From a virus (lineage: Duplodnaviria; Caudoviricetes), in IMG/VR virus record IMGVR_UViG_3300027689_000001, positions 1 to 64,000 of that record: 64,000 nucleotides of DNA; one strand, given 5' to 3'. The notes beneath the pieces were generated by a model. That model was given only the letters and a program-made list of their open reading frames with translations. It made no database searches and had not been told where the DNA came from. Position 1 is the stretch's first letter, and every line of letters starts with the position of its first letter. Shown in pieces: positions 29,684 to 31,750 of the stretch. The position numbers and the translations under genes are program-made.

Positions 29684-30304
29684 CTATCCTGCGTAAAAAA
29701 TATGTCTACCGATTTTAGTAACTCTCTGTAATCTCCACCCTGGACTAACATAATCCGCATGGTAAAACAACACGTTACTATTAACTACTATACGCGTATT
29801 GATCTCAGAAGTCAATACTTTTTTAGCAATATCTTTTGCTTCGGCGTATAATACTGGGTCTTTGGCAGGTCGACGCATACACGTCCAACTGAACTGACAG
29901 ACCCTACTTGTTCTCTGATAAACGACAGAGCAAACGTTTGATGGATATTTTGGATTGCGAACTCTATTTAAAGTTACACCTGCAACCGCGATTTTACCCT
30001 TTCTGGGTTCATTACCTGCTTCGTAGTAGATGTTATCTGCTAGACAAGTTATTGCTGCAGAATTTTGTGACAGGTATTTTTGTTTTTCTTTTTTAACGTT
30101 TTTTTGTATGATTTCTTCTTGTTTTTGTAAAATTTCTTGGTTTTGTCGTTTTACGCTTTCGACTTTCTCATATCCACCGACAGTGTATTCCATTGCGGTG
30201 TCTTCGATTCTTTCTTTTGCATAACTCAATGATACACAATATATTACAATTACCACTAAAATTGAAGAAAGAATTTTCAATGTCTTCTTATTAAAGGAAG
30301 GCAT
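29684..30304 (-). CDS. SleB-like cell wall hydrolase (Hydrolase_2) with N-terminal membrane anchor
   Basis: CLADNIYYEAGNE, VAGVTLNRV, CQFSW, FYHADYVSPGW, IGRHIFY. Start at ATG 30304 (AAGGA upstream) is preferred over 30376. Confidence 0.88.
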   Translation of the reverse strand: MPSFNKKTLKILSSILVVIVIYCVSLSYAKERIEDTAMEYTVGGYEKVESVKRQNQEILQKQEEIIQKNVKKEKQKYLSQNSAAITCLADNIYYEAGNEPRKGKIAVAGVTLNRVRNPKYPSNVCSVVYQRTSRVCQFSWTCMRRPAKDPVLYAEAKDIAKKVLTSEINTRIVVNSNVLFYHADYVSPGWRLQRVTKIGRHIFYAG

Positions 30305-30429
30305 CTCTATTCCTTGGATTGTTAAACTGGAGAGAGGATTAACCAGTGACTCCCTACACTGGGCACTTTTTTTCAAAGGTGCATTATATTTAGGGTTTCG
30401 AAACTCTTTATAGTCTCGTTTTAACCCTA

Positions 30430-30672
30430 AACTAGAACGGTTGACGGTTTATTCTGTTTCGAGGAAAACCGCCGAAAACCCAATGCTAGCTTAAGCAGCT
30501 AGAGCAAAGGCAACGTTATCGTTTGCATTTACAGTTTGTGGCGCTTTGCCAGTCAATCAGTCTCGGTATTCCTATTACACGAAAATCGATATCCAGGTCA
30601 CCCCCATATGGTGGAGGTGGAGGGAGTCGAACCCTCGTCTTTCCGCTTTTATTGTCAACTGTCATCAACTAA
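30430..30672 (-). ncRNA. ssrA: Circularly permuted (two-piece) tmRNA
   Basis: Minus strand: T-arm GAGGG-TTCGACT-CCCTC, then CACCTCC-A-CCA (ends 30609), spacer TAT, then the 5' acceptor strand GGGGGTG (starts 30605), giving a G3:U70 pair. Tag frame 30526-30491 reads ANDNVAFALAA-stop. Outer ends approximate. Confidence 0.93.
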
Positions 30673-30677
30673 TATTC

Positions 30678-30708
30678 TATTTATACTATACTTAACGTAG
30701 GAAGTCAA
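30678..30708 (-). promoter_or_regulatory. Composite promoter for the tmRNA: TTGACT-N17-TATAAA overlapping a late TATAAATA
   Basis: Minus strand TTGACTTCCTACGTTAAGTATAGTATAAATA. Confidence 0.75.
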
Positions 30709-30920
30709 GTGTTTTTTACCACACTTCCCCATTTAATTTTCAACCAAATTCTTTCATGGATGTAGTAGTCTACACTCAACATCAAATGTAAGATAGTCGA
30801 AAACCCCGTCGCTTCACCAATATTTCCAGTGAACAGATATGTCCAAAGAATCGTGAACAACCATGCAGATACTCTGTATGAAATACCTCTAACTAAAGTC
30901 CGTGTTTTTGTTTCAAACAT
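30705..30920 (-). CDS. Small membrane protein, DUF2061-like
   Basis: ETKTRTLVRGISYRV..YYIHERIWLKIKWG. Confidence 0.75.
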   Translation of the reverse strand: MFETKTRTLVRGISYRVSAWLFTILWTYLFTGNIGEATGFSTILHLMLSVDYYIHERIWLKIKWGSVVKNT

Positions 30921-30925
30921 AAAAT

Positions 30926-31750
30926 CTACCCATATAAATTTGAATAATCAAATGCAATTCTGTGAAGGACACGATTGTCCATTCCGTCGAAATCCCAACG
31001 TTTGTGAATGCTCAACCATTGTTCCGATATAACAATATCTCCATCTTCCCAATCATGATGATAAACAAACTCATCCTTTAGCACATGTTCAGTTAGTTCC
31101 TGCATAATGCTTTCAAATTGTTCCTGTTCGTATCCATCAAATCCAAAAATTTGTAAGAACGGAAAGAAAATTCCAGTCTTACCTTCTTTATTGGTGTGAA
31201 CAAGATCGATTAAATTGTCTCTGTTTACATGGTCATTGAAGATTGTAGTTTGTGAGTACTTTCCATGTTCATGCCCACAATATACCTTTATGTCAGCAAT
31301 CTTAGATTTCATCTCATCACTTAATGCTTTGTAACTCGCAATGTTGTTAATCCAACTGGTGCGAGAACCTTTTGTTCCCTTTACTCCATGTAACCAAATA
31401 AGAGGATCTCGCTCTTTGTTGCTAGGTTGATTTGCATGCCAATCTAGAGCAACTTTGTGACCATGTAATCCTTGTTCACCATCCTTGTTGCGTTGACCCG
31501 TTACTCGAAGAATATGGTCAGTTAAACGAATGTGTTTAATTCTTTCTGCTTCTACGGGATAGTATTGACACTTTCCTATAATTTTACAGAATCGTACTTC
31601 ATCTTCAGTCGAGAGTGATTGGTTCTTGAACACAACCACCATGTTACTAACAATGAGTTTACCGACTTGTCTAACTTGCTCGTCGGTTAACATTCTGATG
31701 TCCTCGTCAACGAACACGGTCCATCCATTATCTAATATTTTAATTTGCAT
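30926..31750 (-). CDS. TauD/TfdA-family Fe(II)/2-oxoglutarate dioxygenase
   Basis: VVVFKNQSL, LDWHAN (HxD variant HxN), HHDWEDGDIVI, HKR, RVLHRI. Confidence 0.8.
   Translation of the reverse strand: MQIKILDNGWTVFVDEDIRMLTDEQVRQVGKLIVSNMVVVFKNQSLSTEDEVRFCKIIGKCQYYPVEAERIKHIRLTDHILRVTGQRNKDGEQGLHGHKVALDWHANQPSNKERDPLIWLHGVKGTKGSRTSWINNIASYKALSDEMKSKIADIKVYCGHEHGKYSQTTIFNDHVNRDNLIDLVHTNKEGKTGIFFPFLQIFGFDGYEQEQFESIMQELTEHVLKDEFVYHHDWEDGDIVISEQWLSIHKRWDFDGMDNRVLHRIAFDYSNLYG

Follow-up and report, generated by a model that had tools for sequence, protein, structure and literature searches.

The minus strand of the window, that is, the whole 64-kb stretch of DNA from an uncultured T4-like phage analysed here, carries a circularly permuted tmRNA gene at 30431-30672. 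We consider this gene to be a functional phage ssrA encoding a two-piece tmRNA, and the counterpart by position of the published ssrA genes of the marine T4-like phages Melnitz (a Methylophilales phage), Mosig and HTVC008M (both Pelagibacter phages), with a probability of about 0.85. It belongs to a known class, in which it is nothing out of the ordinary, and is not a new architecture. A preliminary description of this DNA had claimed a phage-encoded circularly permuted tmRNA with an intervening segment of only 3 nt, and had named the Rfam alpha_tmRNA model and ARAGORN as suitable checks. Both gave a positive result and bore out the claim. The Rfam model RF04321 (tmRNA_permuted) matched with 93.4 bits (cut-off 47, E = 8.9e-17) over its whole length (1-213), and RF01849 (alpha_tmRNA) matched with 55.7 bits (cut-off 50, E = 1e-12), scores that are far above chance. 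ARAGORN called a permuted tmRNA at 30400-30704 on the minus strand as the sole RNA gene of the 64-kb window, and its tag, ANDNVAFALAA, is the same degradation-type tag that had been read from the letters. The permuted order is directly visible on the minus strand, as the T arm, the acceptor 3' strand and the CCA come first and the acceptor 5' strand and the tag frame after them. A blastn search with the whole gene against 50,697 GenBank phage records at E 1e-5 gave no match. When a 58-nt query across the junction was compared with the GenBank phages, only T-arm-like stretches of tRNA-Ala and the SsrA of Mosig were found, and among the best matches listed, none crosses a short spacer. The parts of the gene and its surroundings are collected in Table 1.

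Table 1. Features of the permuted tmRNA gene and its promoter in the 64-kb window
Feature	Position	Strand	Basis or remark
-35-like hexamer TTGACT	30703..30708	-	Read directly; 17 nt upstream of TATAAA
TATAAATA, T4-type late promoter motif doubling as -10 box	30678..30685	-	Kept in relatives
Acceptor piece, about 62-64 nt (5' pairing strands, T arm, acceptor 3' strand, A73, CCA)	30609..30672	-	Rfam alignment; 5' end inferred from promoter position
T arm GAGGG-UUCGACU-CCCUC	30636-30620	-	Read directly
Acceptor 3' strand CACCUCC	30619-30613	-	Read directly
Discriminator A (A73)	30612	-	Read directly
Encoded CCA	30611-30609	-	Read directly
Intervening segment TAT, 3 nt, predicted to be removed	30606..30608	-	Sequence and Rfam alignment
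Coding piece, about 175 nt	30431..30605	-	Rfam and alignment of relatives; 3' end inferred
Acceptor 5' strand GGGGGUG, G1 at 30605	30605-30599	-	7-bp stem with CACCUCC
P2a strand UUUUCGU	30585-30579	-	Coding piece; pairs with 30646-30640
P2b strand UGAUUG	30559-30554	-	Coding piece; pairs with CAGUUG 30661-30656
Small hairpin, 4 bp	30551-30539	-	Coding piece, upstream of tag
Tag frame GCA...GCU UAA, ANDNVAFALAA and stop	30491..30526	-	ARAGORN
3' hairpin GGCGGUUU/AAACCGUC, conserved loop UCCUCGAAACAGAAU	30443..30473	-	Fold
Downstream hairpin, possibly a terminator or 3'-end structure	30388..30432	-	Fold, -18.4 kcal/mol, z-score -4.43

The secondary structure was compared in an alignment with the closest viral relatives, about 12 distinct sequences from few lineages. 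The nearest by identity are the contigs L059, L046 and L049 (93%), followed by the L050 group, L045 and L029 (83-84%) and by L057, L026 and L051 (71-73%). In this alignment, the T stem has two compensatory pairs and the P2a helix is paired in 100% of the cells. All the helices taken together are paired in 98.3% of the cells, as against 40-61% when the partner strand is slid by 1-3 columns. The acceptor stem of 7 bp is invariant among the relatives and hence gives no covariation signal. It sets G3 (30603) opposite U70 (30615), next to a discriminator A, and this alanine identity pair, which the preliminary description had pointed out, is seen in the window sequence. The window sequence permits the pairing between the two pieces that was proposed at the same time, but half of the relatives disrupt it (82.6% of cells paired). 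That register of P2 was rejected and replaced by the P2b register of Table 1, which is shifted by a few bases and is paired in 97% of the cells with one compensatory pair.

Toward its end, the coding piece carries a 3' hairpin for which seven of eight lineages, including Melnitz, Mosig and HTVC008M, put the same AACAGAA loop on differing stems of 5-11 bp. Upstream of the resume codon, where pseudoknot PK1 is expected, only the 4-bp hairpin was found and no second stem was established; the hairpin takes a different register in L057 and L026. RNAalifold pairs CGAG (30565-30562) over a long range with the loop of the 3' hairpin, and one side alone of this pairing varies. Sequence conservation with the closest relatives stops at about 30431. 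The downstream hairpin directly follows this conserved end of the tmRNA, has no T run behind it and is not kept in the 93%-identical relatives. The compensatory changes, the kept loop and the pattern of the tag point to a working RNA and not a remnant.

The tag frame opens with the GCA resume codon and closes with ALAA and a UAA stop, which lies in the loop of a hairpin at 30502-30486. The tag is identical in L059, L046 and L049, and the relatives in general keep the ANDN start and the LAA end with a variable middle (ANDNVAFALAA, ANDNDSFADIRLAA, VANDNDIVDFALAA). It had been suggested to compare the tag across host taxa. The bacterial tags sampled were ANESYA(L/I)AA in SAR11, ANDERFALAA of the Rhodocyclales type and ANDNFAPVAVAA in alphaproteobacterial MAGs; none of them equals the window tag and no host is indicated by it. 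The pattern ANDN...LAA is too widespread to tell hosts apart.

The promoter had been described as a combination of a sigma70-like box and a T4-late motif, and both motifs are present in the window. In 13 of the 14 related contigs, the late motif TATAAATA precedes the 5' end of the RNA by a constant distance, the 14th having TATATATA. It occurs eight times in the window against 4.07 expected, and seven of the eight copies are on the minus strand. The -35 box is kept in L059, L046 and L049, and as TTGACA in L057 and L026; it is replaced by TGTACA in the L050 group and is present in only about half of the relatives. In Melnitz, the promoter consists of TTGACA, 17 nt and TATAAATA, which is the layout of the window promoter with TTGACT, 17 nt and TATAAATA. 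A scan with the sigma70 consensus, which demands T at position 6 of the -10 hexamer, does not list the tmRNA promoter; we retained the promoter reading on the strength of its conservation among the relatives.

The IMG/VR record to which the window belongs is 150 kb long and, according to the CheckV estimate, 92% complete; the window covers its first 64 kb. The tmRNA gene is flanked by genes of T4 type, encoding the gp32 single-strand binding protein, the gp59 helicase loader, a PD-(D/E)XK nuclease, PhoH and a Nol-like carbamoyltransferase. The best GenBank phage matches of gp32 were Melnitz (59.5% identity), HTVC008M (55%) and T4-like cyanophages (about 54%). The gene order PhoH, PD-(D/E)XK nuclease, ssrA, gp33, gp59 and gp32 is common to the window, 13 aligned viral contigs, Melnitz, Mosig and HTVC008M. 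In the annotated records of Melnitz and Mosig, SsrA has the PD-(D/E)XK nuclease gene on one side and the genes for gp33 (the late-transcription coactivator), gp59 and gp32 on the other, and in HTVC008M a tmRNA that lacks an annotation occupies the corresponding site.

Some genes beside the tmRNA gene vary. A lysozyme/endolysin-like gene lies directly downstream of it (window 29684-30376, minus strand) and is found at the same place in all related contigs; Melnitz is without such a gene there, and gp33 follows its tmRNA. This gene was listed with a TTG start at 30376, and an ATG at about 30304, behind AAGGA, is the more probable start. On the other side, between the PD-(D/E)XK nuclease gene and the tmRNA promoter (30705-31750, minus strand), sit a gene of 274 aa resembling 2OG-Fe(II)/taurine dioxygenases and an ORF of 71 aa without a PHROG match. 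As a tblastn search found neither of them in the related loci, they represent a variable insertion beside the tmRNA gene. In L026, a related viral contig of 51.6 kb, ARAGORN called a tRNA with the anticodon CTA (L026:5740-5816; labelled tRNA-Pyl, amber-reading) about 300 nt from the tmRNA gene.

Permuted tmRNA genes of this kind are already known in phages. A two-piece ssrA with a relationship to alphaproteobacterial and pelagimyophage genes was described for Melnitz by Buchholz et al. (2022, PMC9004378). They also reported 53 two-piece tmRNAs called by ARAGORN among phage isolates, 50 of which were aquatic, and permuted tmRNAs in 17 of 47 Melnitz-like contigs (PMC9004378). The window gene shares with Melnitz, Mosig and HTVC008M (Kyanoviridae) the permuted arrangement, the genomic position and the 3' hairpin with the AACAGAA loop. 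It also shares the promoter layout with Melnitz, the acceptor stem GGGGGUG/CACCUCC with Mosig and HTVC008M, and a tag of the form ANDN/ANFN...ALAA with Melnitz and HTVC008M. It differs from them in its spacer of 3 nt, the spacers of Melnitz, Mosig and HTVC008M being about 150, 44 and 48 nt long, respectively, and in its T loop, which is the canonical UUCGACU in place of the GCAGUAC, UGCAACU and UGCAAUA types of these phages. A glutamine riboswitch in the 3' domain, said not to be defining, was reported for Melnitz and Mosig (PMC9004378); a search of 30250-30800 with Rfam at E up to 5 gave no match to the glnA or Downstream-peptide RNA models.

The bacterial permuted tmRNAs (RF04321; RF01849, alpha; RF01850, beta; RF01851, cyano) have the same succession of acceptor piece, spacer and coding piece, and likewise G3:U70, an encoded CCA (alpha and beta types), a P2 between the pieces and a tag with LAA. 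A two-piece tmRNA was reportedly described in Caulobacter by Keiler et al. in 2000. In contrast to the bacterial genes, the window gene belongs to a lytic-type T4-like phage without SmpB, as no SmpB gene was found in the 92%-complete record. Permuted tRNA genes are known in Cyanidioschyzon merolae and Thermofilum pendens (PMC3978253). In these genes, too, the 5' half comes after the 3' half, and a sequence of 1-74 nt, thought to be removed by RNase P and a 3' nuclease, closes the acceptor stem (PMC3978253). The difference is that their halves are re-ligated via a circular intermediate to a one-piece tRNA, whereas the tmRNA pieces stay unligated as two RNAs.

The preliminary description had concluded from the permuted gene that the host is an alphaproteobacterium. 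This cannot be inferred, since Melnitz, whose ssrA is of alpha type, infects OM43, a host outside the Alphaproteobacteria (PMC9004378). The 55.7 bits of the window gene on the alpha model also compare poorly with the 206-249 bits of real alphaproteobacterial genes, and the beta model RF01850 scored nearly equally with 53.1 bits (below its cut-off of 84). The T loop does not indicate the alpha type either; an alpha-type loop (GGCGGUACC or GCAGUACC) is present in 51 of the 61 bacterial genes listed, and the window has the canonical UUCGACU. We regard the window RNA as a member of a diverged viral lineage with an ambiguous alpha/beta subtype, because its scores are low on every clade-specific model, where cellular genes reach 206-319 bits. 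No psbA was found in the phage record, so that it is probably not a cyanophage, and unlike Melnitz and HTVC008M, no CsgG curli pore gene was found in it.

The intervening segment had been said to be usually tens of nucleotides long in the permuted ssrA genes of Alphaproteobacteria. This holds for the alpha and beta Rfam consensus and for the cultured phages Melnitz, Mosig and HTVC008M, but not for bacterial genes with 3-5 nt, for SAR11 with 11-12 nt or for viral genes with as little as 1 nt. Our spacer scans covered only the acceptor stem GGGGGUG/CACCUCC with spacers of up to 30 nt, and the counts are samples and not censuses. In the viral contigs, the scan with a canonical T loop found 31 genes with spacers of 1-5 nt among the 58 listed. 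When a second, looser scan was included, spacers of 5 nt or less were found in 35 of the 143 genes listed with a proper T arm. A spacer of 1 nt between CCA and G1 was observed in L039 (L039:1238-1561; IMGVR_UViG_3300025030_000003, a 190-kb contig) and also in L055, L018 and L054. These genes pass the Rfam cut-offs, with 98.2 bits on RF04321 for L039 and 97.7 bits on cyano_tmRNA for L055. The L039 gene abuts an array of 15 tRNA genes, and the genes of L055 and L018 are of the cyanobacterial type.

The bacterial sample consisted of GTDB species representatives scanned with the same acceptor pattern. A spacer of 3 nt was found in L170 (beta_tmRNA, 234.8 bits), spacers of 4 nt in an Accumulibacter MAG (L142, beta type, 236.9 bits) and an alphaproteobacterial MAG (L118, alpha_tmRNA, 248.8 bits), and a spacer of 5 nt in L154 (alpha type, 206.4 bits). 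The SAR11 spacers measured 11-12 nt in most genomes sampled, including two complete genomes. In a gene of the picocyanobacterium Cyanobium (318.9 bits), a 13-nt loop closes the acceptor stem and no CCA is encoded. The 3-nt spacer of the window is short, yet it is neither unique nor the shortest.

A search of the viral contigs with the 5' part of the acceptor piece of the window revealed alleles of the same lineage. The spacer is TAT (3 nt) in the window and TCTAT (5 nt) in L059, L046 and L049; it is stem-closed and 53 nt long in L294-L297, and stem-closed and 67 nt long in L299. The 64-nt acceptor piece is 100% identical in all of these contigs and their coding pieces are 93-95% identical to that of the window. 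In L298, the spacer has 134 nt and the acceptor piece is 95% identical. The spacer of L298 (L298:2235-2368, minus strand of the locus; IMGVR_UViG_3300043466_000624) contains an ATG-started Cys-rich frame (CxC...CCGxC), which has no stop within the spacer and continues into the coding piece to a total of 58 codons; a Pfam search with this frame gave no significant match. Because nearly identical pieces flank spacers of 3, 5, 53 and 67 nt, the mature RNA appears to be independent of the spacer length. These alleles suggest that the gain or loss of the spacer is recent, and that the spacer is a dispensable, highly variable slot of which the window represents the minimal allele.

The composition of the spacers gives a hint on what is left in the window. 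Among the genes listed, TAT is the most frequent last trinucleotide, ending 27 of the 99 unique viral spacers and 11 of the 44 unique bacterial spacers, and in the unique spacers of both sets A prevails at -2 and T at -3. The TAT of the window may thus be the conserved stretch before the predicted RNase P site, with the remainder of the spacer gone. Bacterial RNase P prefers U at -1. A wider reading, which we put forward only as a speculation and hold to be rather improbable, is that the spacer between CCA and G1 in phage tmRNA genes is a hot spot where stem-closed cassettes, some with small genes, are gained and lost, their content being removed by RNase P and 3' trimming. The window would then be an empty site with a UAU leader.

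As for the processing and function of the RNA, we propose the following model. Transcription would start about 6-8 nt after TATAAATA, at about 30672-30670, from a dual sigma70-type and T4-late promoter. The primary 5' end would then already be the 5' end of the acceptor piece, with no 5' leader to remove. The precursor would fold into the 7-bp acceptor stem closed by the loop A-CCA-UAU, a single cut by the host RNase P on the 5' side of G1 (30605) would separate the pieces, and host 3' exonucleases would trim UAU back to the encoded CCA (30609), as with CCA-encoding tRNA precursors. The two pieces would be held together by the acceptor stem and the P2 helices. Charging, SmpB binding and tagging would need host factors, because the phage is without SmpB. 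The host AlaRS would charge the RNA via G3:U70 and A73, the host SmpB and EF-Tu would bring it to stalled ribosomes, and the nascent chain would gain ANDNVAFALAA and be passed to host proteases. The phage would probably benefit from free ribosomes and recycled amino acids while host and phage mRNA decay. The data neither support nor contradict the idea of the preliminary description that the RNA possibly stands in for a host tmRNA destroyed by defence nucleases.

In principle, the processing of a 3-nt spacer would require nothing exotic, as an RNase P cut and 3' exonucleolytic trimming would do. In the RNAfold structure of the precursor, a U(-1):A73 pair lengthens the acceptor helix to 8 bp and leaves a loop of 5 nt, and this extension might hinder RNase P or move its cut. 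A review stated that the precursors of permuted tmRNAs are "probably" processed by RNase P and tRNase Z (PMC3985003). A permuted tRNA gene whose intervening sequence is 1 nt long has posed the puzzle of a very short acceptor loop before (PMC3978253), and in the literature searched no experiment on the processing of a substrate with a 3-nt spacer was found.

The same puzzle lends some weight to the view that the closed 7-nt acceptor loop cannot be opened and the RNA is never charged, or that the gene was taken up from a host and is now an inert remnant. We find this hardly credible. The window gene shares its mature parts with alleles that have spacers of 5-67 nt, at an identity of 100% for the acceptor part and 93-95% for the coding part, and the helices are maintained through compensatory change. 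Moreover, spacers of 1-5 nt recur in 35 of the 143 viral genes listed and in high-scoring bacterial genes, which are presumably the working tmRNA genes of those genomes.

A working RNA could nevertheless serve other ends than ribosome rescue. The authors of the Melnitz study put forward an offensive role as an alternative (PMC9004378), in which the tmRNA, made early from a sigma70-type promoter, would chiefly tag host proteins to supply amino acids. The protease-type C terminus ALAA of the tag and the sigma70-like -35 box of the window are consistent with this. However, a tmRNA cannot select host proteins and acts only at ribosomes stalled on broken messages. An early-only role also agrees poorly with the promoters, where the conserved element is the late motif TATAAATA and the -35 box is absent in half of the relatives, and we judge a chiefly offensive tmRNA to be unlikely. 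The RNA might also act as a decoy and inhibit trans-translation in the host by competition with the host tmRNA for SmpB, AlaRS or ribosomes. A tag-less tmRNA-like RNA of mycobacteriophage DS6A, which inhibits the E. coli tmRNA (PMC11915505), is a precedent for such a decoy, and the lack of an own SmpB in the phage would fit it. Unlike the DS6A RNA, the window RNA has a full tag frame, a resume codon and a stop in a hairpin loop. The ANDN...LAA pattern is kept across diverged relatives, a conservation of the tag that would not be expected for a decoy, so that this possibility seems very improbable to us.

We keep to the reading of an apparently functional two-piece tmRNA. The gene adds little to the knowledge of phage tmRNAs, since the two-piece ssrA of this clade was published in 2022 and standard tools detect the window gene. 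It does show that an alpha-like phage tmRNA is unsuitable as a host predictor. If the reading of the spacer as a hot spot is true, the window and the 1-nt alleles would define the natural lower limit for RNase P, with a closed acceptor loop of 5-7 nt; if RNase P cannot cut such loops, some unknown nuclease would be needed to open them. The value of the window gene is comparative, as it has the shortest spacer in a lineage whose mature RNA is nearly identical and whose spacers range from 3 to 134 nt. This set of alleles is a natural series that may serve to learn what RNase P and the 3' trimming enzyme need, and to place the boundaries of cassettes in the same slot of other phages.
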